From NCBI GenBank assembly GCA_041653115.1, contig JBAZGA010000005.1:2296-66295 (forward strand): a DNA stretch of 64,000 nucleotides, in the 5' to 3' direction. The notes beneath the pieces were generated by a model. The model was not told where the DNA came from. It saw nothing but the letters and a program-made list of their open reading frames with translations, and ran no database searches. This stretch comes from Candidatus Omnitrophota bacterium. Its GTDB lineage: Bacteria > Omnitrophota > Gorgyraeia > Gygaellales > Profunditerraquicolaceae. Position numbers and translations under genes: made by a program. Shown in pieces: positions 32,901 to 56,660 of the stretch (its first letter is position 1; each line of letters opens with the position of its first letter).

Positions 32901-32950
32901 GCAGTTTATTCACCCGTTAACAACGGGAAAATTGAGGAGGTGAGGCTGAA

Positions 32951-33457
32951 ATGGCTTTTAATAAGAAAAAGCTGGAAGAAAGAGTTATGGATGTGGACGC
33001 CTCAATGCAGGGAGAGTTAAGTTTTAGGGACCCGGTAAACCTGCGGATTAACGGCAGGTTTGAAGGGACGCTGAATACGCGGGGCACCTTGACCATCGCC
33101 TCAACCGCGAATGTAGTGGCGGATATTATCGGAGATAATATTATCGTCGGCGGCAGGCTCAAGGGCCGCGTCACCGCCAAAGAAAGCCTGACTCTTCTGC
33201 CCAGCGCGGTTCTCGAAGGCGACATATATCCTTTAAAGTTAAACGTCGCGGAAGGCGCGATATTCGAAGGCCGCTGCATCATGCTGCATGATTTTTTGAA
33301 TGCGGAAGAGCTGGCGCGTTACCTGGAAGTGGACTTGAATTCCATCCTGGAGTGGGCCAGCGCAGGCAAGGTGCCGGGGGTCAAAGAAGGGGAGCGCTGG
33401 AGATTCGAGCGTAAGGCAATAGATACGTGGGTGGCTTCGGGTAAGGTAGGAAAATAA
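32951..33457 (+). CDS. Bactofilin-domain protein fused to a C-terminal excisionase-family HTH (HTH_17-like)
   Basis: Bactofilin beta-helical repeats (GTLTIASTANVVADIIGDNIIVGGRLKGRVTAKESLTL...EGDIY) then LNAEELARYLEVDLNSILEWASAGKVPGVKEGERWRFERKAIDTWV. Confidence 0.7.
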   Translation: MAFNKKKLEERVMDVDASMQGELSFRDPVNLRINGRFEGTLNTRGTLTIASTANVVADIIGDNIIVGGRLKGRVTAKESLTLLPSAVLEGDIYPLKLNVAEGAIFEGRCIMLHDFLNAEELARYLEVDLNSILEWASAGKVPGVKEGERWRFERKAIDTWVASGKVGK

Positions 33458-33469
33458 CTTAAAAAATAA

Positions 33470-33778
33470 ATGACGGAAGAAAAACTTTTAACCATCAGGG
33501 ATGCCGCTTTAATCCTGGGCATCTCCGAAAAAGAGATTATTGATTTGGCCGAAAGCGGCACAATTCCCGCCTATAAAATCGGCGGCGTATACTTAAGGTT
33601 TAAACGCCAGCAGATAGAGGAAGCCAAAAAAACCTTAAACCTCGCCCCTAAGCCGGATGCCCGCCTGGAAAGGCGCTCGTGGAAAGACGGATTCAGCGAT
33701 TTTTTCTATTTTAACGATTTTTATATAATTTCCATCTTGATAATAGCCTTGATACTTTGGATAATATTCAAAGGGTAA
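33470..33778 (+). CDS. Excisionase-family HTH protein with C-terminal transmembrane anchor
   Basis: LTIRDAALILGISEKEIIDLAESGTIPAYKIGGVYLRFKRQQI (HTH_17-like) then the hydrophobic tail YIISILIIALILWIIF. Confidence 0.6.
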   Translation: MTEEKLLTIRDAALILGISEKEIIDLAESGTIPAYKIGGVYLRFKRQQIEEAKKTLNLAPKPDARLERRSWKDGFSDFFYFNDFYIISILIIALILWIIFKG

Positions 33779-33788: not shown

Positions 33789-34457
33789 ATGCTTCTTAAG
33801 CGGGGGTTCTGCGATTTAGGGTTTGCCAGGCTTGACATAGACAGGCAAAAGCGCCGCGGATTTTCCGAAGCGGTATATTGCCCGGGAAAAACCAGGTCCC
33901 ACCTAAAAGATATCGCCAGGACATTCATCAGGAATAAGCAGGATTTACTCTTTACGAAGTTAGAGAAAAGCACTTTTAATTATTTAAAGAAATCATTTCC
34001 CCGCTTAAAGTATAACCCGCAGGCAAAGTTAGGCTATTTATCCAGGCAGCGTAAATCCTTGAAAAAAGGCGTGGTCGCGGTAATCTCGGCAGGGACCGCG
34101 GATATTCCGGTAGCAGAGGAAGCGGTTACCACTTTAGAGGTAATGGGGAACCGCGTGCTTAAGCTTTATGATGTAGGCGTCGCCGGCGTGCATCGGCTGA
34201 TGTTCGATATCGGGAAGATTAGGAAGGCAAGCGTAATTATCGTAGTTGCCGGTATGGAAGGGGCGTTAGCCAGTTTAGTCAGCGGATTAGTCAGCTCTCC
34301 GGTGATTGCCGTGCCGACGAGCTGCGGATACGGCGCGAATTTTTCCGGGCTTTCGGCGTTATTAACGATGCTGAACAGCTGTTCGCCGGGCGTGGCGGTG
34401 GTAAATATTGATAACGGATTTGGCGCGGGTTATATGGCAAGTTTAATCAACCGATGA
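33789..34457 (+). CDS. larB: LarB-like PurE-family carboxylase (nickel-pincer cofactor biosynthesis protein homolog)
   Basis: PurE-like core VVAVISAGTADIPVAEEA...VIIVVAGMEGALASLVSG plus a LarB-type N-terminal extension of about 90 aa. Confidence 0.65.
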   Translation: MLLKRGFCDLGFARLDIDRQKRRGFSEAVYCPGKTRSHLKDIARTFIRNKQDLLFTKLEKSTFNYLKKSFPRLKYNPQAKLGYLSRQRKSLKKGVVAVISAGTADIPVAEEAVTTLEVMGNRVLKLYDVGVAGVHRLMFDIGKIRKASVIIVVAGMEGALASLVSGLVSSPVIAVPTSCGYGANFSGLSALLTMLNSCSPGVAVVNIDNGFGAGYMASLINR

Positions 34458-34870
34458 TTTCCTTAAAGGAAGGAATAAGATTCCACGGGCATTTGGGGCC
34501 TTACCTGGTTTTGGGGATACGCGCCGGGGAACTGGCGCTGAAAAAATTAAACTGTAAAAAATATTTTGGCCTGGAGGTCAAGGTTTGGGGTGCCGGCGAA
34601 AAACCCAAATCCTGCCTGATTGACGGCTTGCAGCTTTCTACGGGAGCGACTTACGGAAAAGGCAATATCAGTAAATTTAACGGCAGGGTAATCAGGATCG
34701 GCTTTAAAAATAAGGTCAGCCGCAGGAAACTGATTTTAAAATTTAAGAATACCCTGCTGAAGGACTTGGCAGAAGCGGACACGCATCAAAAAGCAGAGAG
34801 ATTGGCAAGGCAATTATATAAAAAAAATCATGCGCAGCTTTTTAACTTAAAACTTACCTCCGGAGATTGA
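34454..34870 (+). CDS. FmdE-domain protein (formylmethanofuran dehydrogenase subunit E-like)
   Basis: EGIRFHGHLGPYLVLGIRAG N-terminal FmdE signature; 138 aa. Confidence 0.6.
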   Translation: MISLKEGIRFHGHLGPYLVLGIRAGELALKKLNCKKYFGLEVKVWGAGEKPKSCLIDGLQLSTGATYGKGNISKFNGRVIRIGFKNKVSRRKLILKFKNTLLKDLAEADTHQKAERLARQLYKKNHAQLFNLKLTSGD

Positions 34871-36201
34871 AGATGGCTTTATCAGGGCTGGATATCTATA
34901 AGCTTTTACCGAAAACGAACTGTAAAGAATGCGGGTTTGCGACCTGCCTTGCCTTTGCCATGGCATTGGCAAAGAAGGCAGTAAGCATTGACAAATGCCC
35001 TTATTTAAGCGCAGAAGCAAAAAAACAATTAGAGGCATCGAGCCTGCCTCCGGTAAAATTAGTTACTATCGGCGCGGGAGAAGATAAATTAGAGGTCGGT
35101 AATGAGACGGTGCTCTTCCGCCACGAAGAGAAATTCCACCACCCCTGCGGTATTGGCTTTATTATTGAAGACACCTTAGGCGATAACGAAATAAAGCAGA
35201 AGTTAGAAAAAATTAAGCGGTTGAAATTCGAGCGCGTGGGGCAGGAATTAAACGTAAACCTGGTGGCGATAAAACAGGCGGGCAGCGGAGAAAGGTTCGT
35301 AAAAACAGTGCAACTGGCAACACAGAATAGCCGGCTTGGCCTGGTATTGATGAGCGAGGATTTAACCGCCTTAAAGCAGGCTGCGGAATTTACGAAAGAG
35401 AGAAGGCCTTTAATCTATCACGCAAGCAAAGGCAACCTCGCCGGAGTTGCGCAAATTGCGAAAGAATTTAATCTGCCGCTGGTTGTTTCCGCGCCTGATT
35501 TAGAGGCAGTTTCCATCCTGGCCGGGGAATTAAACAGCCGAGGGCTGAATGATTTAATCCTGGAGACCGGGATTAAGCCGATAAGAGATAGAATCTGGGA
35601 TTTGACTCAGATAAGAAGACAGGCGCTGAAAAAATCCAACCGCAGCTTAGGATATCCGGCCTTAACAATTATCGACAAGAAAGACCCTGAGGAAGAAGCA
35701 GCCGAGGCAGCGACTTATATCGCCAAATACGCGGGAATTATTTTGCTGCGCGGCATTGAGCCGTGGCAGATTTTATCCCTTTTGACTTTAAGGCAGAATA
35801 TCTACACCGACCCGCAGAAGCCGCTGCAGATTGAGCCCAAGCTTTACAGCGTCGGTCAGGTAACCGATAAATCGCCGGTACTGGTGACTACCAACTTTTC
35901 CTTGAGCTATTATACGGTATTGGGGGAAGTGGAGGCCAGCAAGATACCTTCTTATATCGTCAGCGTGGATACCGAAGGGATGTCGGTATTGACTGCCTGG
36001 GCAGCGGAAAAATTTACCCCGGAAAAAATCGCGGATTCCCTGAATAAATTCGGCGTCAAAGAGGCGGTTTCGCACAACAGATTAATTATCCCCGGATATG
36101 TGGCGGTGATGAGCGGGGATTTGGAAGAGAAGTCCGGACGGGAGATTATCGTCGGGCCCAAAGAAGCCGCCGGCATACCGTCATTTTTAAAAAAATTGTA
36201 A
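34867..36201 (+). CDS. acsC: Corrinoid iron-sulfur protein large subunit (acetyl-CoA decarbonylase/synthase gamma subunit)
   Basis: N-terminal [4Fe-4S] motif CKECGFATCLAFAMALAKKAVSIDKCPYL, TIM-barrel and B12-binding regions. Confidence 0.85.
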   Translation: MKMALSGLDIYKLLPKTNCKECGFATCLAFAMALAKKAVSIDKCPYLSAEAKKQLEASSLPPVKLVTIGAGEDKLEVGNETVLFRHEEKFHHPCGIGFIIEDTLGDNEIKQKLEKIKRLKFERVGQELNVNLVAIKQAGSGERFVKTVQLATQNSRLGLVLMSEDLTALKQAAEFTKERRPLIYHASKGNLAGVAQIAKEFNLPLVVSAPDLEAVSILAGELNSRGLNDLILETGIKPIRDRIWDLTQIRRQALKKSNRSLGYPALTIIDKKDPEEEAAEAATYIAKYAGIILLRGIEPWQILSLLTLRQNIYTDPQKPLQIEPKLYSVGQVTDKSPVLVTTNFSLSYYTVLGEVEASKIPSYIVSVDTEGMSVLTAWAAEKFTPEKIADSLNKFGVKEAVSHNRLIIPGYVAVMSGDLEEKSGREIIVGPKEAAGIPSFLKKL

Positions 36202-36208
36202 CCATAGG

Positions 36209-38137
36209 ATGGAAAAGTTCAAAGTTACATTTTACCCGGACAATAAGACCATAGAGGTAGAAAAGGGCAAGACTATCCTGACGGCTGCCATTTCTGCCGG
36301 AGTCTATATTAATTCCAGCTGCGGCGGAGACGGCGTTTGCGGCCGCTGCAAAGTAATTTTAAAAAAAGGCGAGGTAATCAGCCAGCCCACCGGAAGATTA
36401 AGCCTGGAAGAACGCAGGCAGGGGGTCCATCTTGCCTGTCTTTCTACGATAGAGGGCGATTTGGAGGTGGAGATTCCTCCGGAATCGAGGTTAGACTTAG
36501 AGCAGCTCAACCCCGAAGAAGTTGATTTAAGGTTAAAGGGCCTTTATTCGAAGGCCGAAGAAATCGAGCCGGTAAAATCAATTTTAGGCGAAGAAATTTT
36601 TCACCACTCTCCTTTAGCCACTAAGCTATATCTGGAATTACCTCAACCGACCCTGGAAGATACGGTCAGCGATCTGGAAAGATTATACCGCGCCATCCGT
36701 AAAATCCAGGATATCCCGGTGATGCAGGCCGGCCTGGCCAATATCCGCGGGTTAGGCGAGTTGTTACGTGATGCTGAATGGAAAATTACCGTGACTTTAG
36801 GCAAAAGAAACGGCACCACGGAAGTCGTGCTGGTTGAGCCGGGGGATACCTCGCAGCATAATTACGGCCTGGCCTTTGACATCGGGACTACGACTATTTC
36901 CGGGCAGTTGGTGGATTTACGCACCGATAAGGTTTTAGGCAGCAAAGCCGCTTACAATAAACAGGCGGCATTCGGCAGCGATATCATCACGCGTATCATT
37001 TATGCCCGGGAAGAGGACGGCCTGGAAAAGCTCCACCATGCCGTGGTTGACGTAATGAACGGGATGTTACATGAATTAATCCAGGAGCACTCAATAGACC
37101 TGAATGACGTGAACTGCGCCCTTTGCGCGGGCAATACCACGATGATGCATCTTTTGCTGCGGGTTGACCCGACATATATCAGGAGAGAACCCTATGTGCC
37201 CACGGCGAATTTTGTCCCGACGGTGCGCGCCAGCGAAGCCGGGATAAAAATAAATCCGCGCGGGCTTTTATCCTGCGTTCCGGGCGTCTCCAGTTATGTA
37301 GGCGGCGATGTCACTGCCGGGGTTTTATCCTGCGGCCTGGATAACGAAGAAGATTTATGCCTTTTGATTGATATCGGCACCAACGGCGAAATAGTTTTAG
37401 GCAGCAGGGAGTTTTTGATTTCCGCTTCTGCTTCTGCCGGACCGGCATTTGAAGGCTCGGGTGTTGCCTGCGGCATGCGTGCCAGCCGCGGCGCCATCCA
37501 AAAAATAAAAGTCAGCCCCAAAGATTTCAACGTTGCTTACAGCGTAATCGGCGAAGAAGAGCCCCGCGGCATCTGCGGCTCGGGTTATATTGACCTGATT
37601 GCCGAAATGCTGCGCGCCGGCCTCCTGGATAAAAGCGGGAAGCTCAAGGCAATAAAGAACAGGCGTATCCGTGATGGCGAAACAGGCAAGGAGTTTGTGG
37701 TGGTTTTCAAGGAAGATACAGGCACGGCTTCCGATATCGTGATTAATGAAGCAGATATTGAGAACTTGAAACGCGCCAAGGCAGCGATTTACTCGGCAGC
37801 CGCCAGCCTGGTCAGGCGTATGAGCCTCGATTTTAGGAAAATTAAGAAATTTTTTATTGCCGGCGGGTTCGGCACTTATATTGATGTCGCCAATGCCATT
37901 GCTATCGGCTTGCTTCCGGACTTGGATAAATCAAGATTTATTTTTGTCGGTAACAGTTCCTTGGCCGGAGCGCGGCAGATTCTTCTTTCTTACGAAGCGA
38001 TGAAAAAGGCGGATGAGATTGCCCGCAAGATGACTTACTTTGAGCTCTCGGTTGACCCCGGATATATGGATGAATATATGGCGGCTTTATTTTTCCCGCA
38101 TACGGATTTGGCAAAATTCCCCAGTGTGAAAGTATAA
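36209..38137 (+). CDS. acsV: Reductive activator of CFeSP (RACo/AcsV; 2Fe-2S ferredoxin plus ASKHA ATPase, DUF4445)
   Basis: Plant-type [2Fe-2S] motif SCGGDGVCGRCKV followed by a DUF4445/ASKHA-type domain. Confidence 0.8.
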   Translation: MEKFKVTFYPDNKTIEVEKGKTILTAAISAGVYINSSCGGDGVCGRCKVILKKGEVISQPTGRLSLEERRQGVHLACLSTIEGDLEVEIPPESRLDLEQLNPEEVDLRLKGLYSKAEEIEPVKSILGEEIFHHSPLATKLYLELPQPTLEDTVSDLERLYRAIRKIQDIPVMQAGLANIRGLGELLRDAEWKITVTLGKRNGTTEVVLVEPGDTSQHNYGLAFDIGTTTISGQLVDLRTDKVLGSKAAYNKQAAFGSDIITRIIYAREEDGLEKLHHAVVDVMNGMLHELIQEHSIDLNDVNCALCAGNTTMMHLLLRVDPTYIRREPYVPTANFVPTVRASEAGIKINPRGLLSCVPGVSSYVGGDVTAGVLSCGLDNEEDLCLLIDIGTNGEIVLGSREFLISASASAGPAFEGSGVACGMRASRGAIQKIKVSPKDFNVAYSVIGEEEPRGICGSGYIDLIAEMLRAGLLDKSGKLKAIKNRRIRDGETGKEFVVVFKEDTGTASDIVINEADIENLKRAKAAIYSAAASLVRRMSLDFRKIKKFFIAGGFGTYIDVANAIAIGLLPDLDKSRFIFVGNSSLAGARQILLSYEAMKKADEIARKMTYFELSVDPGYMDEYMAALFFPHTDLAKFPSVKV

Positions 38138-38138
38138 A

Positions 38139-38891
38139 ATGAGTTATACCATCGCTATTGCCGGAAAAGGCGGCACAGGCAAAACCACTATCGCAGCGCT
38201 CCTGGTGAGGCTGCTCAAGGAAAAGAAGCTGGGTTCGATTCTGGCAGTGGATGCCGACCCGAACAGCAATTTAGGCGAGGCCTTAGGCGTAGAAGTAAAA
38301 GAAACTATCGGCTCTATCCTTGATGATATCGCGGCGCATCCGGAGAGAATCCCTTCCGGGATGCCTAAAGAGCGCTTCATCGAATATGAAGTCCAGACCG
38401 CGGTCCGCGAGGCAGAGGGTTTTGATGTCCTGACAATGGGTAAGCCCGAAGGCCCGGGCTGTTATTGCTATGTCAATAACGTCTTAAGAAACCTGATGGC
38501 GCGCCTGATTAAAGACTACGATTATATCGTGATTGATAATGAGGCGGGTTTAGAGCACCTTTCCCGCCGGACCACCAGAAGCGCCGAGGCGTTGGTGGTA
38601 GTTTCAAACATTACAGCCGCAGGCTTAAAAGCTGCCGGAAGAATCGGCGAACTAGCCAGAGAGCTGGATATAAAAATAAAGAAGAGCCTCCTGGTAGTAA
38701 ATTGCTCCGAAAAAAATCCGGCAAAAGAAACGCTTAAAGAAATGGGTTTGGATTATATCGGTAATATACCCCGGGATAGGCGGATAGAAAAAATCAGCCT
38801 GAACGGAAATTCATTACTTGCATTAGCCGATGATGCGCAAAGCATCAGCGCCTTGCGTAAAATAGGAGATAAGATATGGCAGCAGAGTTGA
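38139..38891 (+). CDS. cooC: CooC/AcsF-type MinD-family ATPase (Ni-insertion accessory protein)
   Basis: IAIAGKGGTGKTTIAALL deviant Walker A and CxC metal motif GPGCYCYVNN. Confidence 0.8.
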   Translation: MSYTIAIAGKGGTGKTTIAALLVRLLKEKKLGSILAVDADPNSNLGEALGVEVKETIGSILDDIAAHPERIPSGMPKERFIEYEVQTAVREAEGFDVLTMGKPEGPGCYCYVNNVLRNLMARLIKDYDYIVIDNEAGLEHLSRRTTRSAEALVVVSNITAAGLKAAGRIGELARELDIKIKKSLLVVNCSEKNPAKETLKEMGLDYIGNIPRDRRIEKISLNGNSLLALADDAQSISALRKIGDKIWQQS

Positions 38892-39808
38892 TGTTGGAAA
38901 AATGGCCGGGTGAGGTAGCGGTGATTACTATCGGCGCGACTAAAGGCGAAGGGGGCAGCCGCTCCCGGGCGATTAAGGTCGGCGGCCAAAAGGCCCTGCC
39001 GTTTTTATCTGCCGAAGGCGCAATCCCGCATCGGCCGGTAATCGCCTTTGAAATCTGGGATACAGCGCCCACAGATTGGCCGGAAGAATTAAACAAGGAT
39101 TACCGCGATGTTTTTAGCGAGCCCCTGGCCTGGGCGGAAAAATGCGTAAAGAAATACCAGGCAGGAATTTTATGTTTGAAATTACAGGCAGCGCACCCGG
39201 ATTTCGGGGATAAGAGCCCGGATGCGGAAGCGAAATTAGTTTCAGAATTGCTCAAAAAAATAGATGTGCCGCTGATTATCTTGGGCTGCGGAGATGACGC
39301 CAAGGATAACCTGGTTTTACCGGCAGTCTGCGAAGCAGCCAAGGGCGAACGCTGCCTGATCGGGAGCGCCGTACAGGATAACTATAAAACCCTGACTGCC
39401 GCGGTGCTGGCAGACGGCCACAATATTGTCGCCGAATCGCCCATTGATATCAATATCGCCAAACAGCTGAATATTTTAATTTCCGATATGGGCCTGCCTC
39501 TGGAGCGCATCGTGATTAATCCTACTATCGGCGCACTGGGCTATGGCCTGGAATACGCCTATTCAATTATGGAGCGCAGCCGTTTGGCAGCCCTGGCAGG
39601 AGACAAAACCGTAGCCAGCCCGTTTATCTGTCTGGCAGCCCAGGAATCCTGGCGGGCAAAAGAAGCTAAAATAGATTCCGAGCACGGGATAATCTGGGAA
39701 ATAGTGACTGCTACTGCGCTGCTTCAGGCAGGAGCGGATATCCTGGTGATGCGCCATCCCCGGGCAATCGAAAAAGTGAATAAGCATATAGATGAATTAA
39801 CCGGATAG
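38876..39808 (+). CDS. acsD: Corrinoid iron-sulfur protein small subunit (acetyl-CoA decarbonylase/synthase delta subunit)
   Basis: About 310-aa TIM-barrel protein between cooC and acsE in the canonical acs order; profile consistent with AcsD/CdhD. Confidence 0.7.
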   Translation: MAAELMLEKWPGEVAVITIGATKGEGGSRSRAIKVGGQKALPFLSAEGAIPHRPVIAFEIWDTAPTDWPEELNKDYRDVFSEPLAWAEKCVKKYQAGILCLKLQAAHPDFGDKSPDAEAKLVSELLKKIDVPLIILGCGDDAKDNLVLPAVCEAAKGERCLIGSAVQDNYKTLTAAVLADGHNIVAESPIDINIAKQLNILISDMGLPLERIVINPTIGALGYGLEYAYSIMERSRLAALAGDKTVASPFICLAAQESWRAKEAKIDSEHGIIWEIVTATALLQAGADILVMRHPRAIEKVNKHIDELTG

Positions 39809-45608: not shown

Positions 45609-46311
45609 TTTCGGGGAATTATCGAGACTGGCAGCTAGATACGGTTATGACGCAAATCACAATTTGCGTTATATGGCACTGGCCCAATTAGTAAAGAGTC
45701 ACGATATTAAAGATATATTAATATTGGGTTGCGGCAAGGGTATCCTGGAATACATTCTTCCCGAAGAAGTGAGGTGTACTTCCATAGATATAGACCAAAG
45801 AGCGATAGAGATTGCCAGAGAAATAAACAAGGAAAAAAGAAACCGTAACTTTATAGTAGCAGATATATTTAGAGTAATAGACGTATTGCGTAAACAGTTT
45901 GATGGAGTGATAGTTTCGGAAGTTATAGAGCATGTGGAAGATGATAAAAGAGTATTGGACATAGCCCGGCAATTTATGAAGCCGCAAGACAGCCTTTTCA
46001 TACTGACGGTCCCAAATCTAAACCGCTTCAGAAATAAGATCCATACGGCGTTTGGAGGAAAAATCGAGTTTATGTCAGACAGTCATATCAGAGAATATAA
46101 CCGTGGCGACATAGCCAATCTTCTTATCGCTGCTGGATTTTGGATAATTAAGACCGATTATGTTTATTTTAGGTTCCCCAAAGAATGCTTAATCAGACCG
46201 TTTATCGGCCTGAATAGTTTACTGCGTAAGATTATGCTGAAGGTTTTCCGGCTCTGGGCGGATTATATTATTGTTGTTTCGGTTATGAAGCAGGATGAGG
46301 GAAGGCCTTGA
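45601..46311 (+). CDS. Class I SAM-dependent methyltransferase
   Basis: ILILGCGKGILE...IDIDQRAIEIARE motifs I/II. Confidence 0.75.
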   Translation: MADFGELSRLAARYGYDANHNLRYMALAQLVKSHDIKDILILGCGKGILEYILPEEVRCTSIDIDQRAIEIAREINKEKRNRNFIVADIFRVIDVLRKQFDGVIVSEVIEHVEDDKRVLDIARQFMKPQDSLFILTVPNLNRFRNKIHTAFGGKIEFMSDSHIREYNRGDIANLLIAAGFWIIKTDYVYFRFPKECLIRPFIGLNSLLRKIMLKVFRLWADYIIVVSVMKQDEGRP

Positions 46312-47273
46312 ATATGCAGAAAGTTTCAGTAATCGTTCCGGTAAAGAATGAAGGACGGCACATCGCGGATTTATTGGGTTCCCTCCAGGCGCAATCCGTA
46401 AAGCCCGATGAAATAATCATAGTGGACGGCGGCTCTACTGACGGCACTGCCGGGATAGTTGAAGATTGCAGGAAAAAGGGAATGCCGCTTAGGTTAATAG
46501 CCGTTACCGAAGCATTGCCGGGAAAAGGCCGGAATATCGCTATTGAAAATGCAAAAAATGAAATCATCGCGATGACCGACGGAGGGATTATCCTAGACAG
46601 GGATTGGTTGAAGAACATAGTCGCGCCTTTTGCGGAAGATTCTTCCCTTGAAGTCGTGCATGGGCTGCGAGGTTGCCGCGCCGTAACTACCTTTGAGGAA
46701 TGTTTTGCGCTGGTCTATTTGCCGGCTAATCGGGCGCTAAAATCCCCGTTTAGAAATTTCCCGTTTGTCGCATCCACGGCGCTGAAGAAATATGTTTGGG
46801 AAAAAGCCGGGAAATTTAGAGAGGACTTGCGGGCGGGGGAAGACCTGCTTTTCCTGAAGAAATTAAAGGAGTCTAAATTCAGGACTATAGTTGCCTATAA
46901 TGCTGTGGCATATTGGCGCCCGCGCTCTTCCTTTAGAGAGGGCTTTTCGCTTGCTTTCAAATATGCCGTATGCGATGCAAAGACTCGCCTCCATCTTTCC
47001 AGACATTTCAGAAAATATTTAATGTATTCGCTTGGGGCGCTACTCGCCTATGCGGGCCTAAAAAATCCCGTCTGGTTCGTTCTTTTGGCCGCCGGGTTTG
47101 TATTGGATATTCTATTGGTTTGCAGGAAGCATTGGAATGAATTCTTGAAGCTTGTCGGGAGAAATCCGGGAAATCTTTTCACCATCACCGCCATCATTAT
47201 TATCCTGGATATCGCAGGCCTTTGCGGTTTCTCGGCAGGACTTATAAGGAAGATTTTTAAGCATGCCAATTAA
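46308..47273 (+). CDS. GT2 glycosyltransferase with C-terminal TM segments
   Basis: VSVIVPVKNEGRHI...IIIVDGGSTDGT...MTDGG. Confidence 0.8.
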   Translation: MNMQKVSVIVPVKNEGRHIADLLGSLQAQSVKPDEIIIVDGGSTDGTAGIVEDCRKKGMPLRLIAVTEALPGKGRNIAIENAKNEIIAMTDGGIILDRDWLKNIVAPFAEDSSLEVVHGLRGCRAVTTFEECFALVYLPANRALKSPFRNFPFVASTALKKYVWEKAGKFREDLRAGEDLLFLKKLKESKFRTIVAYNAVAYWRPRSSFREGFSLAFKYAVCDAKTRLHLSRHFRKYLMYSLGALLAYAGLKNPVWFVLLAAGFVLDILLVCRKHWNEFLKLVGRNPGNLFTITAIIIILDIAGLCGFSAGLIRKIFKHAN

Positions 47274-48582
47274 CGTGAAACTATTTTTCGCAGCCATAAT
47301 CGGGTTAGTCGCCTCGCTCCTGACTTTATTGCCCAGGACAGCCAACGAAAAAATAATTGTTTCCACTATGTTTATTGTCGCTATGCTTACGGCCGGACGC
47401 CGTGCGACTCTCATTGTGTTATTTTTGGTTTTGCGGCCCTGCCTAGATTTGATAGCCGAACAACAAGTTGCCGGCATTTGGAATAGCGCCTCCTTAGCCA
47501 CTATTTTTTTCATCCTGACGGCAGGGCAGGCATTATTAAGGAAAGAGAGTATCGCAAAGATTGCCGCAAACCGGCTCATACTTGACGCAAATAGGGTCTT
47601 TTTAGCTTTTCTGGTTCTTTCTCTGATCTCTTTTGTAAATTCACGAGACCTCTTGACCTCTTTCTCCGATTGGCTGCGGCTGGTTTCTATTATCGTAATG
47701 TTCAATTATGCCTTCTTATACTTTTCCGAAAGCAGGGCATTTGCAAAGTTATTTATTGCGATTCTGCTATCCGGCGTTGTGCCGCTTGCTTTAGGGATGT
47801 ATCAATATCTTTTTTATAAAGGCAATCTTTACACTCCCGGGTTTAACAGAATATACGGCACCTTCTTGCACCCGAATGTATTGGCAGAATACCTGGTCAT
47901 TTTATTTGTGGCGGTCCTGTATTTCCTTAAAGAGCACAGGTCTGGAAAGTCGCTGCAGCTTGTTTTGTATTCATTCCTCGCCATAGCTCTCTTTGAAATC
48001 TTTCATACTTATACGAGAGGGGCATGGATAGCGCTGGCACTATCCCTGTTCGTCATCAGTATCACTTATAGGAAACATCAGAAAATAATTTATTTTGTCC
48101 TGATTCTTACCGTTATGCTGGTCATCTTTCCGGCTATCCAAAAGCGCTTTATGGATATCAGGGCCCATAACCCGGAATTAATGAGTTCCTGGGAATGGCG
48201 GCTGATGGTTTGGAATGATACAAAAAAAGAAATAAGCAAACACGCCGTTATCGGGCATGGATTAGGGATGTATCAAAAAGGGTTTACTTTTATGGCCCAT
48301 AACGATTATTTGCGGCTCGCCTATGAAACGGGCATATCAGGATTAATTATCTATCTATTGTTTCTCGCGACTATCCTTGGTTGCTCAATAAGGAAGATAG
48401 TGCATGAAAAGAATAAGTATGCTAAAAATAGGTATGTGGCGATATCCGGGCTTATGGTTGCTTTTTTGGTTATGGGGGCGGCTGATAATCTTGTGCGTTC
48501 CACAGTGGTCTTGTTGTACTTATTTTGTGTAATAGGCGCCTTGGTTGGTTACCATCCGGACATTTCACATGAAAAAAGTTGA
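47263..48582 (+). CDS. O-antigen ligase/polymerase family membrane protein (Wzy_C domain), copy 1
   Basis: Polytopic protein with TRGAWIALALSLFVIS Wzy_C-like core and a periplasmic loop. Confidence 0.7.
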   Translation: MPINVKLFFAAIIGLVASLLTLLPRTANEKIIVSTMFIVAMLTAGRRATLIVLFLVLRPCLDLIAEQQVAGIWNSASLATIFFILTAGQALLRKESIAKIAANRLILDANRVFLAFLVLSLISFVNSRDLLTSFSDWLRLVSIIVMFNYAFLYFSESRAFAKLFIAILLSGVVPLALGMYQYLFYKGNLYTPGFNRIYGTFLHPNVLAEYLVILFVAVLYFLKEHRSGKSLQLVLYSFLAIALFEIFHTYTRGAWIALALSLFVISITYRKHQKIIYFVLILTVMLVIFPAIQKRFMDIRAHNPELMSSWEWRLMVWNDTKKEISKHAVIGHGLGMYQKGFTFMAHNDYLRLAYETGISGLIIYLLFLATILGCSIRKIVHEKNKYAKNRYVAISGLMVAFLVMGAADNLVRSTVVLLYLFCVIGALVGYHPDISHEKS

Positions 48583-49756
48583 AAGAAAAACTTATAATTT
48601 ATTAAAAGATCTTAGGCAACCCGCCTGTATCGTGCTGGGGATGGAATCGTTTACAGGATTAAGTATAATCCGCAGCTTAGGCGTAATGGGAGTTCCGGTA
48701 ATCGGAGTGGACTGGTCACGGCTTGCCATAGGAGCATTTTCCGAGTATTGCTCGGCAGCAGAATTCTCGCGTAATGAAGAAGATTTGCTTTGTCTTCTAG
48801 GAGCGATAAGGAGGATAAGTCGGCAGAGAAACGTAATAATTTGCGAAAGCGACAAGTATCTTTTATTCTTAGATAAGTATAAGCACGAATTAGACAAGGA
48901 TTTTTTCCTAACCATCCCCAGTAGGATATTATTATCAGAGTTGATGAACAAGAAAAGGATGATGGAATTAGCCGTGGAGGCAGGTATTGATACCCCGCGT
49001 ACTTTTTCCTCCAGCCGATTTTCAGAAGAGGAGATTAAGAAAAAAGTTCTTTATCCTTGTTTTATCAAGCCACTATATACCCAAACAAATTTAAGGACAA
49101 AGGGCGAAATAGCGAAGAATGAAAGAGAGCTTGAGTATTCTTTGGCTAAAGAAAGATTCAAAGGAGGATACATTGTCCAGGAGATTATCGGCGGCCCGGA
49201 GACCGATATCTGGATTTATGCAGGTTATATAAGCAAAAACTTAAAAGTAGGGGTTACTTGTTATAAATACAGGCAAATCCCTAGGGGTTTTGGAGTAGGT
49301 ATCGTCGCTTTTAGTATGAAAAATCAGGATGTGCAGGAGGCGGGAAACAGATTTTTGGATTACTTAAATTACACCGGATTATTTTGTCTTGAATTCAAAA
49401 AGGATTCCAGGGATGGCAAATATAAGCTTTTGGAAATCAATCCGCGGATTTGCGGCCAGAATCAGCTCTTCACATTCTTAGGGTTTAATCTCCCATATAT
49501 TGCATATCTTGATGCTTTAAGCTTGAAAGCCGAATATCCTGCTGCGCAAAAAGATGGTGTTTTATGGGTTTCAGTCATAGAGGATTTTATCACCTGTTGC
49601 AGGTATTATTGCCATTACAATAAGCTGATATTTATTGATTGGATCAGGAAATCATGCCAAGCGGATGTATATGCGGATTTTTCTATGCGAGACATCAAGC
49701 CGTTCATATTCAAACTCCTCAAGCATGTATTGAGGATGAATAAAACGAGCAATTAA
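48545..49756 (+). CDS. ATP-grasp domain enzyme
   Basis: GYIVQEIIGGPETDIWIYAGY...LLEINPRI ATP-grasp fold; start uncertain (alternative ATG at 48569). Confidence 0.65.
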   Translation: MVTIRTFHMKKVERKTYNLLKDLRQPACIVLGMESFTGLSIIRSLGVMGVPVIGVDWSRLAIGAFSEYCSAAEFSRNEEDLLCLLGAIRRISRQRNVIICESDKYLLFLDKYKHELDKDFFLTIPSRILLSELMNKKRMMELAVEAGIDTPRTFSSSRFSEEEIKKKVLYPCFIKPLYTQTNLRTKGEIAKNERELEYSLAKERFKGGYIVQEIIGGPETDIWIYAGYISKNLKVGVTCYKYRQIPRGFGVGIVAFSMKNQDVQEAGNRFLDYLNYTGLFCLEFKKDSRDGKYKLLEINPRICGQNQLFTFLGFNLPYIAYLDALSLKAEYPAAQKDGVLWVSVIEDFITCCRYYCHYNKLIFIDWIRKSCQADVYADFSMRDIKPFIFKLLKHVLRMNKTSN

Positions 49757-49758
49757 TC

Positions 49759-51003
49759 TTGAGGCATATTATGAAAATTCTGCTTGTAAACAAATTTTTC
49801 TATCTGAAAGGTGGCGCTGAATTCGTCTTTTTTGAAACAGCTAAACTCTTAAAAAATAAGGGCCACCAGATAATGTTTTTCTCGATGGACCATCCGCGCA
49901 ACTTAAAATCAGAATACGGAAAATACTTTGTTTCTAACATAGATTATGGGAGAAAGGGGATAAAAAATATCATATTTTCTTCATTGCGGCTTTTATATTC
50001 TATGCAGGCCAAAAGAAGGATAGAAGAGCTTATTTCTATAGAGAAACCGGATATCGCGCATTTGCATAATATTTACCATCAGATTTCTCCTTCTATCCTG
50101 CATGCCCTTAAAAAATATAATATTCCTATCGTGATGACCATCCATGATTTTAAGTTAGTCTGTGCTTCTTATCTGCTTTTTACCGGCGGGCATATCTGCG
50201 AAGCCTGCAGAGGAGGTCGGTATTATCAGTGTTTTTTAAAAAAATGCGTAAAAGATTCCCCCGTAAAAAGCTTATTGAATACGATGGAGATGTACTGGCA
50301 TCATAAGATGCTGCATATTTATGACCTGGTGGATATATTTATCTCGCCCAGCAGATTTCACAAAGATAAGATAAGAGAGATGGGTTTTAAAGGAAAAATT
50401 ATTTATCTGTCTAATTTTATAAACCTTAAAGAGTATACGCCGTCATATAGCTCTCAGGAGAAATCAGTTGTTTATTTAGGCCGCCTCTCCAGAGAAAAGG
50501 GGTTAGGTGTTTTATTGGAAGCTATGAAGGGGATAGGCGCGAAGCTTAAAATTATCGGCGATGGGCCGCTAAAAAAAATACTTTTTGAAAAAACAAGGTT
50601 AGAAAACCAGAAGAATGTTGAGTTCCTAGGATATAAGACGCTGGAGGAATTGAAGAAAGAAATAGAAAAAGCAATGTTTCTGATTCTTCCTTCGGAGTGT
50701 TATGAGAATAATCCCCTGTCCATTATGCAGGCTTTTGCTTTGGGTAAGCCAGTTATCGCATCAAGGAACGGAGGCGTGCCTGAATTGGTCAGGGATAATG
50801 AGACTGGCTTAACTTTTCTGCCGGGAGATGTAGGGGATTTACGGGCGAAGATACTCCAGCTTTTGAAAGATAGAGCCGGACAGGAACGTATGGGGCGCGA
50901 GGCAAGAAGAATGATAGAAGAGAATTGCAGCTCAGAAGTCCATTATAAGAAATTGCTCGGTATCTATAATTCCGTTCTTCTTAAGCAGGGGGTTTTGGAA
51001 TGA
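49759..51003 (+). CDS. GT4 glycosyltransferase
   Basis: C-terminal GT-B retaining signature (ECYENNPLSIMQAFALGKPVIASRNGGVPELV). Confidence 0.8.
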   Translation: MRHIMKILLVNKFFYLKGGAEFVFFETAKLLKNKGHQIMFFSMDHPRNLKSEYGKYFVSNIDYGRKGIKNIIFSSLRLLYSMQAKRRIEELISIEKPDIAHLHNIYHQISPSILHALKKYNIPIVMTIHDFKLVCASYLLFTGGHICEACRGGRYYQCFLKKCVKDSPVKSLLNTMEMYWHHKMLHIYDLVDIFISPSRFHKDKIREMGFKGKIIYLSNFINLKEYTPSYSSQEKSVVYLGRLSREKGLGVLLEAMKGIGAKLKIIGDGPLKKILFEKTRLENQKNVEFLGYKTLEELKKEIEKAMFLILPSECYENNPLSIMQAFALGKPVIASRNGGVPELVRDNETGLTFLPGDVGDLRAKILQLLKDRAGQERMGREARRMIEENCSSEVHYKKLLGIYNSVLLKQGVLE

Positions 51004-52103
51004 GAATCGTCATCCTGGGAACGCGGGGTTTTCCAAATGTGCAGGGCGGGGTTGAAAAACACTGCGAATGCCTTTCGGTTAATCTCGTAAAATTAGGATG
51101 CGAGGTTATAGTATTTACAAGGAAACCGTATGTGGATAAAAGCCTCAAAGAATATAAAGGGGTAACATTGGTTGTTCTCCCGGCTTTCCGGAACAAATCA
51201 TTAGAAGCATTTCTTCACACCTTTATAGGAGTTTTTTTTGCTTTGAGATATAGGCCTGATATTTTACATATTCAAGCCATTGGGCCGGCGTTTTTTACTC
51301 CTTTGGCGAGGACTTTAGGGATGAAAGTTATCGTCACTTCTCACGGCTCCAATTATAAGCATCTTAAATGGGGGAGATTTGCAAAGGCAGTTTTAAGGTT
51401 AAGCGAATTTTTAGGGGTAGTTTTTTCAAACGATGTGATAGCTATTTCCGATATTATTGCAGGAGAAATATTAAGAAACTATGGTAGGAAAGCAACTGTG
51501 ATTTATAATGGCGTGACTATGCCTGAGACTTTAAAAAGCGAAGAATCGCTAAAGAACTTCGGCCTCGAAAAAGGAAAATATCTTCTTGCAGTGGGAAGAT
51601 TTGTTCCGGAAAAAGGATTCGGTGAGTTGATAGAAGCATTCAATTCGTCTTTAGGCTGGAAATTGGTGATAGCTGGAGATGCCGACCATCAGGATGAGTA
51701 TAGCCGGAGATTGAAGGAGCTAGCTAAAAAGAAACCCGGAGTAGTTTTGACCGGTTTTTTAAGCGGGCAGACTCTGCATGAATTATATAGCCATGCCGGC
51801 CTGTTTGTGCTACCGTCTTATTATGAAGGTTTACCAATATCTCTTCTTGAGGCGATGAGTTACGGCTTATCCTGCCTGGCAAGCGATATCCCGGCGAATA
51901 GAAACGTGGGCTTAACGGATGATAGGTTTTTTAAAGCAGGCGATATCTACAGGTTAAGAGAAAAGATTATTTATTTTATGGATAAACCGTTAAACGAAGG
52001 AGAAAGAGCTGCGCAGATTACAATAATAACCGAAAAATACAACTGGGAAAAAATTGCAAAGCAGACGCTGGAATTATATAGACGTACGCTTTATAAAAAA
52101 TGA
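51000..52103 (+). CDS. GT4 glycosyltransferase
   Basis: PSYYEGLPISLLEAMSYGLSCLASDIPANRNV E-x7-E-type motif. Confidence 0.8.
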   Translation: MRIVILGTRGFPNVQGGVEKHCECLSVNLVKLGCEVIVFTRKPYVDKSLKEYKGVTLVVLPAFRNKSLEAFLHTFIGVFFALRYRPDILHIQAIGPAFFTPLARTLGMKVIVTSHGSNYKHLKWGRFAKAVLRLSEFLGVVFSNDVIAISDIIAGEILRNYGRKATVIYNGVTMPETLKSEESLKNFGLEKGKYLLAVGRFVPEKGFGELIEAFNSSLGWKLVIAGDADHQDEYSRRLKELAKKKPGVVLTGFLSGQTLHELYSHAGLFVLPSYYEGLPISLLEAMSYGLSCLASDIPANRNVGLTDDRFFKAGDIYRLREKIIYFMDKPLNEGERAAQITIITEKYNWEKIAKQTLELYRRTLYKK

Positions 52104-53155
52104 AAAAGCGAATTATTAATTTAATTTTAAGTATAATTTTTATTTTTATCATAGTTATAATAGTTCTTAATTTTTTTGCAGACTTACAATTCAATTCCGC
52201 TAAAAAGCTTGAATCTCTTTACCTTTGGCAGGAAGCTAAAGAGAGATACCAATTAGCCATAAGAATCAACCCTTTCAATACGCAATACCTTAGTGCCTAT
52301 GGAGATTTTTTACGCGACAAAAGCCTTTATCAAAAAGATAGAATTGCCTGGTTATTAATGGCGGAAAAATTATATAACCGCGCTTTAGAATTAAATCCCC
52401 GCTGCGCAGAATATGCCTTATCTTCAGGCCGGGTGAAATTGGAATTATTTTTATCGGATAAGGATAAATTTAAGGATAAACTTAGCTCTGGCTTAGCTGA
52501 TTTGAAAAGAGCCTTCAAGAATGATCCGAAAGGTTTTAATATTGCTTATTCTACGGGTTATACCGGGATGACAGTTTGGGATAATCTTAATGCAGGTGAG
52601 AAGAAGTGGGTTTTGGAAAGGTTAAAATACAGTCTTAAAATTGACCCCGAATATGGTGAGCATATTTATCCTTATTTATGGCAGGCTACAAAAGACTCTA
52701 GGCTTTTGCGTAAAATCAGACCTTTAGCATCCGTACAAGAGAAAAAAGAAGAATTAAAAAGGATAGAAAGAATTAAGCAGGGTAATCTTAGTCAATCCTG
52801 GCAAGGCAAGTCTTGGTATGGAGATAATATTTATGAAGGCGGGAATATGTATTGGATGGGGACAGTGGATATGCCGGTAAATATACCTGTGGGCAAGGCA
52901 ATAGTTAAACTACAAGCCAGTGGCTCACCGGCTAACGGCGTATGGCCTCATATGATTGTAGAATTAGACGGTGAGGAAATCGGAGAGACATTTGTAGAGA
53001 ACGCGGAATGGAAAGAATACATTTTTGATATAGATACAAAGGGCGGAGTTAAGGTATTGAATATTACTTTTTCGAACGACGGAAGCAACCCCGCTAATAA
53101 TGAAGATAGAAATTTGTATCTGGGCGAAGTCAAAATAATAAAAAATGAGCGATAA
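52100..53155 (+). CDS. Membrane-anchored TPR-like protein with C-terminal carbohydrate-binding-module-like domain
   Basis: N-terminal TM, TPR-like helical repeats, C-terminal beta-sandwich-like segment ending ...DRNLYLGEVKIIK (CBM-like); very AT-rich. Confidence 0.4.
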   Translation: MKKRIINLILSIIFIFIIVIIVLNFFADLQFNSAKKLESLYLWQEAKERYQLAIRINPFNTQYLSAYGDFLRDKSLYQKDRIAWLLMAEKLYNRALELNPRCAEYALSSGRVKLELFLSDKDKFKDKLSSGLADLKRAFKNDPKGFNIAYSTGYTGMTVWDNLNAGEKKWVLERLKYSLKIDPEYGEHIYPYLWQATKDSRLLRKIRPLASVQEKKEELKRIERIKQGNLSQSWQGKSWYGDNIYEGGNMYWMGTVDMPVNIPVGKAIVKLQASGSPANGVWPHMIVELDGEEIGETFVENAEWKEYIFDIDTKGGVKVLNITFSNDGSNPANNEDRNLYLGEVKIIKNER

Positions 53156-54356
53156 AATATATAGACGCATAATTTGGTTTGGGATAGCGTTAGTCTTAAT
53201 TTTTTCTCCCCTTGCAGGGGGGGCAACAAGGGTATGGGCAATTGCGCCGGTTTTGCTTATTGAATTTACGCTGGTATTCTTATGGCTCTGGAGAATCAAT
53301 AATCGAGGAGAAAAGCCTGAACGCACAGCTTTAGATAAGCCGATATTCGCCTTTGTTGTTCTGGCAGTTATTTCTTTTGTCTTTTCTATTTATAAACATG
53401 ACAGTTTCTTCGCGCTGCTTCGGCTCTTTGGTTATGTAGGAATTTTTTATCTGGTATTAAATAACTTTGACCAGATAATGCGCAGGCGCTTATCGGGATT
53501 AGTGATATTTATCGGCGCCGGGCTTTCTCTTTACGGCTTTTTGCAATACTTCGGTCCACTAAATCATTCCTGGTGGAACCCGCCGCAATTTTTAGCCGCA
53601 AGCTACATTAACCATAACCACTTTGCCGGATACCTGGAACTGGTAATTCCGGTGACGATAGGTATGTTATTTAGCCGCAGCCTGAAGTCTGCCGGTTACA
53701 GGTTAGTAATATTAGTAGCGCTAATCATTATGTTAATGGTTTTTATTTTTGTCCAGTCGCGAGGCGGGTGGCTTTCTCTGGCGGTTGCGCTTTTGGTGAT
53801 GAATATTGTCTTGATAAAACAGGGAAGGCTGAAGAAAAAGAGTTTCTTTGCTTTTTTCATTATTCTAGGGTTAATTTTCTCTTTTTTCTATTTTAACAGA
53901 GACGAAGTATCACAGCGTATAGAAACAGTTGCAGATATTCGCGACTTATCTTTTCAAACCAGATTAAGGATTTGGGATGGAGCAGTGAAGATGGCGCGCG
54001 ATAATCCCTTAATCGGGGTGGGGATTGGCGCGCTTGACTACGCGTTTTCTCAATACCGTCCAGAGGGCTTTGACGCCCGGGCAGTGAATGCCCATAATGA
54101 ATATTTGAATGTAGCCAGTGAGATGGGCATAGCAGCTTCTCTGTTGATGCTTTGGATATTCATCGCTGTAATTATTGAAGGTTTAAAGAAAAGGCATTTT
54201 AACTCCCGGAGGCTTGGCTGCGCAATCGGCATATTGAGCCTCTGCCTGCACGGTTTGATAGATTTTAATTTCCATATCCCGGCGAATATGTTATTATTTA
54301 CCATATATGCCGCTTTCATTATGACACCTAGCAAAGGGGACATAAACAGTGTTTAA
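53145..54356 (+). CDS. O-antigen ligase/polymerase family membrane protein (Wzy_C domain), copy 2
   Basis: NHNHFAGYLELVIPV...VQSRGGWLSLAVALLVM Wzy_C core and a large periplasmic loop. Confidence 0.7.
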   Translation: MSDKIYRRIIWFGIALVLIFSPLAGGATRVWAIAPVLLIEFTLVFLWLWRINNRGEKPERTALDKPIFAFVVLAVISFVFSIYKHDSFFALLRLFGYVGIFYLVLNNFDQIMRRRLSGLVIFIGAGLSLYGFLQYFGPLNHSWWNPPQFLAASYINHNHFAGYLELVIPVTIGMLFSRSLKSAGYRLVILVALIIMLMVFIFVQSRGGWLSLAVALLVMNIVLIKQGRLKKKSFFAFFIILGLIFSFFYFNRDEVSQRIETVADIRDLSFQTRLRIWDGAVKMARDNPLIGVGIGALDYAFSQYRPEGFDARAVNAHNEYLNVASEMGIAASLLMLWIFIAVIIEGLKKRHFNSRRLGCAIGILSLCLHGLIDFNFHIPANMLLFTIYAAFIMTPSKGDINSV

Positions 54357-55797: not shown

Positions 55798-55816
55798 TTT
55801 ATCAAGGGAGGTAAAA

Positions 55817-56650: not shown

Positions 56651-56660
56651 GGAGGGGACG

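Follow-up and report, generated by a model that had tools for sequence, protein, structure and literature searches.

The stretch analyzed here is a window of 64,000 nucleotides from a Candidatus Omnitrophota bacterium (assembly GCA_041653115.1, contig JBAZGA010000005.1, positions 2,296 to 66,295), and the system of interest is a pair of adjacent open reading frames (ORFs) on its forward strand. The upstream gene, ORF1 (32951–33457, + strand), encodes a 168-residue protein that Pfam, TIGRFAM, and an AlphaFold2 (AF2) model describe as a bactofilin fused to a helix-turn-helix (HTH) domain of the HTH_17 family. The downstream gene, ORF2 (33470–33778, + strand), encodes a tail-anchored HTH_17 membrane protein of 102 residues. 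The two are separated by a 12-nt spacer, CTTAAAAAATAA (33458–33469, + strand), which is without a usable Shine–Dalgarno (SD) sequence for ORF2. The sequence of ORF1 recurs unchanged (100% identity) in P0001, which comes from a metagenome-assembled genome (MAG) labeled "Candidatus Omnitrophota bacterium". In the window, ORF1 and ORF2 share a frame, with two stop codons between them, the second of which lies within the spacer. The initial annotation of this DNA had named a frameshift artifact of one gene as an outcome that would undo its proposal; in each of the 75 loci with both genes, the two are separate, and the spacer and the relative frame differ among loci. One locus, L043, seemed to contain a natural ORF1–ORF2 fusion, which proved to be a run of masked N bases.

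Residues 14–109 of ORF1 match the Pfam Bactofilin family (PF04519; IPR007607) with 79.2 bits against a cut-off of 27.9. The AF2 model of ORF1, with a mean predicted local distance difference test (pLDDT) score of 85.6, is composed of a disordered N-terminal decapeptide (residues 1–10, pLDDT <50), a β-helix (residues 12–106) with a core modeled at pLDDT >90, and a compact winged HTH. The right-handed bactofilin β-helix, which includes Phe105, is encoded by nucleotides 32984–33268 (+ strand) and is recognized by PF04519, AF2, and Foldseek alike. Structural comparisons with Foldseek show that it overlays with TtBac (6RIB) with a root-mean-square deviation of 1.5 Å over 101 columns and that it also matches BacA (2N3D; E = 8.7e-4).

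An N-terminal membrane-targeting sequence (MTS) is typical of bactofilins, though not universal. The first eight residues of ORF1, MAFNKKKL (32951–32974, + strand), resemble such a sequence, a likeness in sequence only: ORF1 begins with MAFNKKK, the family consensus is MAFKKKK, and the global consensus of the bactofilin MTS is MFSKKKK (PMC12448750). By the same resemblance, an MTS-like N terminus is present in 75 of the 79 ORF1 orthologues. Phe105 of ORF1 aligns with Phe130 of BacA and Phe105 of TtBac. In BacA, Phe130 is the conserved Phe at the C-terminal polymerization interface, and an F-to-R change there abolishes assembly (PMC12448750). The position is always hydrophobic in the 79 ORF1 orthologues, being Leu in 53, Phe in 25, and Ile in one. 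Judged by sequence and predicted fold, ORF1 is a genuine bactofilin with its features intact, and it would be expected to polymerize through the β-helix and to bind the membrane through the MTS-like N terminus. In the AF2 model, the HTH domain begins only ~8 residues past the last β-strand.

The C-terminal domain of ORF1 (residues 114–164; 33290–33442, + strand) is a winged HTH of the excisionase/BldC type, with Glu134 at the base-reading position. The N-terminal domain of ORF2 (residues 5–55; 33482–33634, + strand) adopts the same fold, as recognized by HTH_17, AF2, and Foldseek, and carries the acidic recognition helix SEKEIIDLAESGT. Residues 115–164 of ORF1 match HTH_17 (PF12728) with 43.1 bits and residues 6–51 of ORF2 with 42.8 bits (cut-off 27), and TIGR01764 ("excise") scores 33.7 bits for ORF1 and 33.9 bits for ORF2 (cut-off 28.8). 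Both AF2 models display the α1–α2–β–β–α3 topology of a winged HTH; in ORF1, the elements are β115–117, α118–125, α129–137, β144–146, β149–153, and α154–162. In Foldseek comparisons, the HTH of ORF1 matches RdfS, BldC, and Pukovnik Xis at 1.5–1.8 Å, followed by RacA and CbpM, and the HTH of ORF2 matches Pukovnik Xis and BldC at 1.1–1.3 Å, with RacA and CbpM also among its matches. The two HTHs align to each other in hhalign with 84% probability and 25% identity, and no pairwise similarity between ORF1 and ORF2 was found by BLASTP; by these profile comparisons, the two domains are homologous yet distant.

The initial annotation had thus read the architecture correctly in most respects. The profile searches that it proposed, with PF04519 and PF12728, score above their cut-offs; its bactofilin with a C-terminal HTH is borne out by the Pfam matches and by AF2 and Foldseek; and the 102-residue HTH protein with a C-terminal transmembrane (TM) helix lies exactly where it was placed, 12 nt downstream. 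It had assigned the β-helix to all of 32951–33457, which is too long, since the β-helix spans only residues ~12–106 (32984–33268). Its description of ORF2 as a paralog holds at the family level, by hhalign, and does not extend to pairwise similarity by BLASTP.

Several named families that contain related HTHs were also compared. The BldC family model NF033787 gives 15.8 bits against a cut-off of 77, the MAD1 model of the MADS defense system (NF047737) gives 42.8 and 33.1 bits against a cut-off of 80 with only weak matches to mad1 in PADLOC, and the MamR model NF040990 gives ORF2 17.2 bits against a cut-off of 100. DUF4004, the domain of BacR, has no Pfam match at E ≤ 0.1 in either protein. Three proteins with good scores against the HTH of ORF1 (P0171, P0249, and P0179) contain two or three tandem HTH_17 domains; these are natural covalent arrays of the fold and have ordinary basic wings (GRxWRF).

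The remainder of ORF2 is devoted to a tether and a membrane anchor. In its AF2 model (pLDDT 72.3), the winged HTH (residues 6–55) is followed by a disordered linker (residues 56–70), a helix (residues 71–81), a kink at Asn82, and a terminal helix (residues 83–101). The linker (33635–33679, + strand) is a variable tether with low conservation and pLDDT <50 at residues 60–70. The juxtamembrane helix (residues 71–82; 33680–33715, + strand), identified from AF2 and from conservation, contains Asp77–Asn82 of the motif DFFYFNDFY. The C-terminal TM helix (residues 83–101; 33716–33772, + strand) leaves one or two residues outside and is modeled with pLDDT up to 93; it coincides with the most hydrophobic stretch of ORF2, residues 84–102, for which the 19-residue Kyte–Doolittle maximum is 2.5. 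The DFFYFNDFY motif (residues 77–85; 33698–33724) bridges the juxtamembrane and TM helices and ends at Tyr85, inside the TM helix. Asp77, Phe78, Tyr80, Asn82, Asp83, Phe84, and Tyr85 are invariant in the 37 sequences of A4 and near-invariant over the 75 genome orthologues, and the conservation of the motif exceeds that of the ORF2 HTH. Co-evolution of this motif with the β-helix of ORF1 was considered and is unsupported (partial r of −0.11).

The initial annotation had called for a survey of the phylogenetic distribution of the fusion, which proves to be spread across Omnitrophota. At least 1769 homologues of ORF1 were found, and the top 120 of these each contain both domains within 166–173 residues; for ORF2, there are at least 1064 homologues, each of ~100 residues and from Omnitrophota. 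A scan with one genome per species returned 80 loci, nearly all from Omnitrophota MAGs. Among 1.84 billion cluster representatives searched with HMMER, ~25–30 clusters at 50% identity span Bactofilin and HTH_17, the rest being plain bactofilins, and the most distant fusions (28–36% identity) retain both domains. A few loci bear the labels of other phyla, namely Margulisiibacteriota, Patescibacteria, Deltaproteobacteria, and Planctomycetales (L003, L034, and L055, with many "uncultured Planctomycetales/Planctomycetia"). These labels are probably mislabels or mis-binned contigs, because the gene order matches and the identity is 52–79%. The nearest bactofilins without an HTH (P0141, P0144, and P0163) were considered as unfused ancestral forms; they lie on contigs of <600 bp that offer no context and are probably truncated copies.

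ORF2 comes after ORF1 wherever the contig continues, and this pairing is no coincidence. In the main lineage, the pair resides in a block with the order Ctp, polysaccharide deacetylase, TsaD, MgtC, ORF1, ORF2, LarB, and Wood–Ljungdahl genes (CdhD, RACo, and a CooC-like protein), an order that is found phylum-wide; GatAB and the genes of carbon monoxide dehydrogenase/acetyl-CoA synthase are also among the neighbors of the pair in the window. Within this block, ORF1 is the most conserved protein, with 70–79% identity versus 57–66% for TsaD. The adjacency seen in the main lineage could, taken alone, be inherited synteny. Divergent fusions in unrelated neighborhoods nonetheless precede an HTH_17 protein of 97–105 residues with a C-terminal TM helix: in L082–84, the pair is preceded by a giant protein, a SPOR protein, and a TPR-PDZ protein; in L085, it is preceded by DnaE and a histidine kinase/response-regulator gene; and L089 provides a third unrelated neighborhood that keeps a pair of the ORF1–ORF2 type. 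Since the arrangement persists in at least three unrelated neighborhoods, the pair behaves as an autonomous two-gene module.

Two of the distant clades have surroundings of their own. The most distant fusion clade (28% identity), represented by L081 1–5567 (JGI 3300009777) and L088 1–5567 (ENA ERZ27245622), closes a conserved cluster that comprises an actin-like (Volactin) gene, an uncharacterized protein of 200–209 residues, a ParA/MinD-like ATPase with an AMPK1_CBM domain, and two proteins of ~216 residues without a Pfam match. This cluster may be a cytoskeletal or partition operon. In L082 1–4946 (GCA_964565945.1), the giant upstream ORF exceeds 1300 residues and is cut at the end of the locus, and it is accompanied by the SPOR-domain and TPR-PDZ proteins. 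The SPOR fold binds septal peptidoglycan, and these neighbors hint that, in that lineage, the setting is one of envelope or division functions.

The expression signals of the two genes differ markedly. ORF1 is preceded by the Shine–Dalgarno sequence GAGGAGGTG (32934–32942, + strand), located 8 nt 5′ of its ATG and identified from its duplex with the anti-SD sequence. The calculated duplex energy is −13.5 kcal/mol for ORF1, which ranks first among the 63 ORFs of the window, versus −3.3 kcal/mol for ORF2, which ranks 42nd. Over 65 loci, the mean energies are −12.0 kcal/mol for ORF1 and −4.2 kcal/mol for ORF2, and the ORF1 duplex is the stronger of the two in 64 of them. This asymmetry suggests that ORF1, as the polymer subunit, is probably abundant and that its partner ORF2 is probably scarce. 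Directly 5′ of the ORF1 ribosome-binding site lies a short, GC-rich hairpin, CCCGTT-aac-AACGGG (32913–32927, + strand), which is not followed by a run of T and was not listed by the terminator scan. Hairpins of other sequence occupy the same position in L002, L004, L007, L010, L021, and L030. With position and pairing kept while the sequence differs, the change looks compensatory, and the hairpin could serve as a 5′ mRNA stabilizer, as a processing site, or be a remnant of an MgtC terminator. No conserved operator or direct repeat was found upstream of ORF1, where only the SD sequence and the variable hairpin are present.

Structures of BldC bound to DNA show which residues of this fold contact DNA: Arg30, without which binding is lost (R30A), reads bases together with Lys26; Thr27, Thr29, Lys33, and Trp31 touch phosphate; and the wing docks via His46, Arg47, and Arg48, with H46E also abolishing binding (PMC5859096). 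These contact positions were mapped onto the orthologues of ORF1 and ORF2 by HMMER and hhalign registers. The position of BldC Arg30 is Glu or Asp in 78 of 79 ORF1 orthologues; in ORF1, Asn/Ser/Gly are found at the position of Lys26, Asn/Ser at that of Lys33, and Asp/Ala/Asn, Trp, and Lys/Arg/His at those of His46, Arg47, and Arg48. In ORF2 orthologues, the Arg30 position is Asp in 43 of 75, and Glu or Asp is found at the Thr27 position in 71 and at the Lys33 position in 60; Lys/Glu occur at Lys26, and Tyr/Phe, Leu, and Arg at His46, Arg47, and Arg48. The recognition helix, α2, has a mean net charge of −0.9 in ORF1 and −2.4 in ORF2 (75 orthologues), compared with +2 to +3 in the DNA binders BldC, Pukovnik Xis, and RdfS, and all three main subclades share the acidic pattern. 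The full set of basic recognition-helix and wing residues that contact DNA is found in neither ORF1 nor ORF2. The initial annotation took both domains to bind DNA, and with an acidic Arg30 position and acidic recognition helices, this claim is unsupported as it was stated. Canonical DNA binding by the HTHs of main-lineage ORF1 and ORF2 appears weakened by these substitutions; because the canonical DNA-reading residues are replaced by acidic ones, the main-lineage HTHs would act mainly as protein–protein adaptors.

The best explanation for the pair is a chromosomal two-gene cytoskeletal module that is present throughout Omnitrophota. As to how it works, we propose, tentatively and with somewhat less than even confidence, that the two winged HTHs dock to each other and that this contact joins the bactofilin polymer, abundant and membrane-bound, to a receptor that is scarce and tail-anchored. 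The ORF1 polymer would lie on the inner face of the cytoplasmic membrane, held by its N-terminal MTS, and each subunit would display a folded winged HTH of the excisionase/BldC type instead of a disordered C-terminal tail. ORF2, anchored by its tail, would present the same fold on a flexible tether of ~15 residues, and the HTHs of ORF1 and ORF2 would dock head-to-tail, as this fold self-associates in BldC. ORF2 would then serve the bactofilin polymer as its receptor at the membrane, as a nucleator, or as a factor that positions it.

Head-to-tail self-association has been reported for Xis and RdfS, and CbpM, which has a MerR-like fold, has been solved in complex with a protein partner, the J-domain of CbpA. 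The winged HTH of BldC self-associates head-to-tail (PMC5859096), and a membrane client of BacA, PbpC, binds BacA polymers and can substitute for the MTS (PMC12448750). A further precedent is given by the bactofilins BacE and BacF, which bind the HTH protein BacR and bring it to the membrane (PMC13649987). Indirect evidence for docking comes from the strict coupling of the two genes. The equivalents of the BldC head-to-tail interface are conserved in both proteins (Leu125, Val127, and Trp135 of ORF1; Tyr35, Ile/Val37, Gly38, and Gly39 of ORF2), and the whole-domain charges are complementary, at approximately −2 for the ORF1 HTH and +1.5 for the ORF2 HTH. A mirror-tree comparison of the two HTHs, with TsaD, MgtC, and LarB as controls, gives a partial r of 0.41 that was reached in none of 2000 permutations; the corresponding values are 0.42 for the β-helix and the HTH within ORF1 and 0.16 for the β-helix and the ORF2 HTH. 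A charge-swap covariation, S159E in ORF1 with D25R in ORF2, was also considered and does not hold up in intermediate clades such as L050 and L052.

Several observations weigh against docking as the function of these domains. When LarB is dropped from the controls, its residual mirror-tree correlation is equally 0.41, so the signal is not fully specific. No adjacent HTH partner was found in two of the distant fusion clades, L087 and L081/L088. ORF1 retains the backbone-contact positions Ser131, Trp135, Lys140, and Lys/Arg151, and ORF2 retains an invariant Arg43. In other HTH proteins, a Glu or Asn of the recognition helix is able to read bases, as does Glu181 of CRP, and the close structural relatives of both domains are all DNA-binding except CbpM. 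Finally, the distant tail-anchored HTH_17 partners in L085 (5661–5960) and L089 (1447–1764) have recognition helices with net charges of +6 and +5 and carry Arg/Lys at the positions of BldC Lys26, Arg30, Lys33, and Lys36; the ancestral partner therefore probably bound DNA. Set beside the acidic helices of the main clade, these basic helices look like the other side of a lineage-specific charge reversal on the DNA-facing surface.

The foremost alternative to HTH–HTH docking is a DNA–membrane tether, in which the HTH array of the filament binds the chromosome and ORF2 supplies a second, membrane-fixed DNA contact, such that the nucleoid is anchored or organized. The great majority of HTH_17 domains bind DNA, structural comparison places BldC, Xis, RdfS, and RacA closest, BldC oligomerizes on DNA, and the basic partners of L085 and L089 keep Arg/Lys at the DNA-contacting positions. 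Among the distant fusion clades, one follows Volactin and ParA/MinD-like genes and another adjoins DnaE, and bactofilins of Myxococcus organize ParABS complexes (PMC5703909). A multivalent filament could, moreover, offset a weak affinity per domain. These points must be set against the replacement of the essential base-reading Arg by Glu/Asp in 99% of ORF1 orthologues, the four acidic residues in the recognition helix of ORF2, and the net charge of −2 of the ORF1 HTH; in addition, no conserved repeat or operator was found near the locus, and in the main clade the pair has no linked gene or site resembling ParB or parS. On this balance, a tether is somewhat less likely than docking. A more particular form of it is less likely again: the bactofilin filament would itself be a DNA-binding polymer, its non-canonical HTH array would bind the chromosome directly, and with the tail-anchored partner it would fix the chromosome at the membrane as a minimal anchoring or organizing machine that needs no ParB-type adaptor; in that form, the HTHs would be spaced at about one subunit, each ~3 nm long, and the arrangement would be specific to the ultra-small cells of Omnitrophota. 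The initial annotation had proposed a device for anchoring or positioning a chromosome or plasmid. The plasmid part is unsupported: the context is one of chromosomal housekeeping genes, syntenic across the phylum, and the fusion does not occur among 72,556 plasmids or 50,697 phage records, where the match to a Leptospira plasmid, over query residues 30–155, is a plain bactofilin of 146 residues with a tail that is not an HTH. The chromosome part is still possible, since the structural relatives bind DNA and the distant partners are basic.

A different role is suggested by Bacillus subtilis, in which BacE and BacF bind BacR, block its binding to DNA, and keep it at the membrane (PMC13649987). 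One HTH of the pair might similarly be a transcription or nucleoid factor that is sequestered on a membrane-bound bactofilin, coupling envelope status to expression; the linkage of a bactofilin gene to an HTH gene is alike in the two systems, and the acidic HTH of ORF1 could mask a basic partner in the distant lineages. Such a switch is improbable, because both HTHs are permanently fixed, one fused to a polymer and the other tail-anchored, and neither could reach the nucleoid without proteolysis. The absence of a DUF4004 match and of a conserved upstream operator argues in the same direction, and conservation of ORF1 above that of TsaD points to a structural rather than a regulatory role. It is comparably doubtful that the genes share an operon without their products interacting, with the ORF1 HTH binding another client or tuning its own polymerization and ORF2 being an unrelated small membrane protein. 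The two distant fusion clades that lack an adjacent partner favor this idea, as does the short distance between the HTH and the last β-strand, from which the domain could influence the C-terminal polymerization interface. Against it stand the strict adjacency of the genes, which holds in 75 of 75 loci and also where the neighborhood is unrelated, the same rare pairing of fold and membrane attachment in both proteins, and the mirror-tree signal between the two HTHs, tempered as that is by the equal LarB residual. Readings of the domains as a mobile-element excisionase or a MADS MAD1 HTH, or of the pair as a single frameshifted gene, are effectively refuted. They draw on the matches to TIGR01764, to PHROG excisionase families, and to the MAD1 model, and on the shared frame of the ORFs in the window; yet no integrase, MADS, or defense genes were found near the pair, the MAD1 scores fall below their cut-off, neither the plasmid nor the phage collection contains the fusion, and the two intervening stops and the variable frame and spacer speak for separate genes.

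The remainder of the window provides the setting of the pair. Nearly all gene-like ORFs of ≥150 residues in the window (1–64000) are on the + strand, an extreme strand bias over 64 kb, and the listed − strand ORFs all overlap + strand ORFs. Directly 3′ of the pair (33789–39808) are genes for LarB, an FmdE-like protein, CdhD with an FeS domain, RACo, a CooC-like CbiA ATPase, and a second CdhD-family protein; LarB functions in the synthesis of the nickel-pincer cofactor, and RACo is a corrinoid activator. The adjacency of ORF2 and LarB is retained even in the distant L089. Farther downstream, 46308–62185 is a cluster for polysaccharide synthesis and export, which encodes a GT2 glycosyltransferase, two Wzy_C O-antigen-ligase-like proteins, a SurA-like protein, a BBP2_2 β-barrel porin, Wza (Poly_export/SLBB), and a Wzc-like tyrosine-kinase/chain-length protein. 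The assignment of this 46–62 kb region as a dcw division cluster was considered and rejected, given its Wzy, Wza, Wzc, and GT2 genes.

The initial annotation had also supposed that the fusion was not a described bactofilin architecture, and no published account of a bactofilin–HTH_17 protein was found in a literature search that excluded most subscription journals. Within that same scope, no paper contains both "bactofilin" and "excisionase" or treats the bactofilins of Omnitrophota, and a survey paper on Omnitrophota makes no mention of FtsZ, MreB, or the cytoskeleton. The architecture is visible in databases because automatic annotation gives "polymer-forming cytoskeletal protein" or "excisionase family DNA binding protein". 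What sets ORF1 apart is that it is phylum-wide and conserved above the universal enzyme TsaD, with a folded putative adaptor domain on each subunit and a tail-anchored partner of the same fold. Docking between the HTHs, if it occurs, would be a new mode of coupling a bacterial polymer to the membrane and a clear case of a DNA-binding fold co-opted for cytoskeletal protein–protein contacts. If the domains instead bind DNA, ORF1 would be a bactofilin that tethers the chromosome directly, the first of its kind. Either outcome would offer initial access to the cell biology of Omnitrophota, a phylum not yet cultured, with cells of roughly 0.2 µm, and the small size of ORF1 and ORF2 makes study in a surrogate host feasible.

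Described bactofilins consist of a β-helix core of about 100–110 residues between unstructured tails, polymerize into filaments independently of nucleotide, and recruit clients by short peptides. Similar to the canonical bactofilins BacA of Caulobacter crescentus and TtBac of Thermus thermophilus, ORF1 has the β-helix core, an MTS-like N terminus, and a hydrophobic residue at the polymerization interface. The main differences are that ORF1 has a folded winged HTH after a linker of ~8 residues, where described bactofilins have an unstructured tail, and that it has a dedicated, co-conserved membrane partner. The logic proposed for ORF2 resembles that of RodZ, which is membrane-anchored and uses a cytoplasmic N-terminal HTH to bind the MreB polymer rather than DNA. 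RodZ has an XRE-type HTH, a central TM segment, a periplasmic domain, and an actin-like partner, MreB, whereas ORF2 has an HTH_17 domain, a tail anchor, and a presumed bactofilin partner; we know of no homology between RodZ–MreB and ORF2/ORF1.

With respect to fold and sequence, BldC, Pukovnik Xis, and RdfS are the nearest relatives of both HTHs (1.1–1.8 Å), and the hydrophobic positions equivalent to the head-to-tail interface of BldC (PMC5859096) are conserved in ORF1 and ORF2. Unlike ORF1 and ORF2, these relatives are free-standing, basic, and DNA-binding, and Arg30, Lys26, and Lys33 of BldC are replaced by acidic or neutral residues in the pair. A functional excisionase is encoded beside an integrase in a mobile element, which is not the arrangement found for ORF1 and ORF2. 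In RacA–DivIVA of B. subtilis and BacNOP–PadC–ParB of Myxococcus xanthus, a MerR-like winged HTH or ParB-type DNA binder is coupled to a membrane-associated scaffold, and RacA is itself a structural match of both HTHs. These systems keep binder and scaffold as separate proteins, unlike ORF1, and their DNA binding has been demonstrated; the base-reading Arg of the RacA/BldC type is lost in main-lineage ORF1 and ORF2. Noc is a further chromosome-anchoring analogue for a tether.

The closest experimentally studied parallel is BacR (YhbD, DUF4004) of B. subtilis with the bactofilins BacE and BacF (PMC13649987). As in the Omnitrophota pair, an HTH gene is linked to bactofilin genes, and in B. subtilis this linkage extends to a physical bactofilin–HTH association at the membrane, where binding to the bactofilin competes with binding to DNA (PMC13649987). 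BacR differs from ORF1 and ORF2 in that it stands alone as a soluble DUF4004 dimer and shuttles between membrane and nucleoid.

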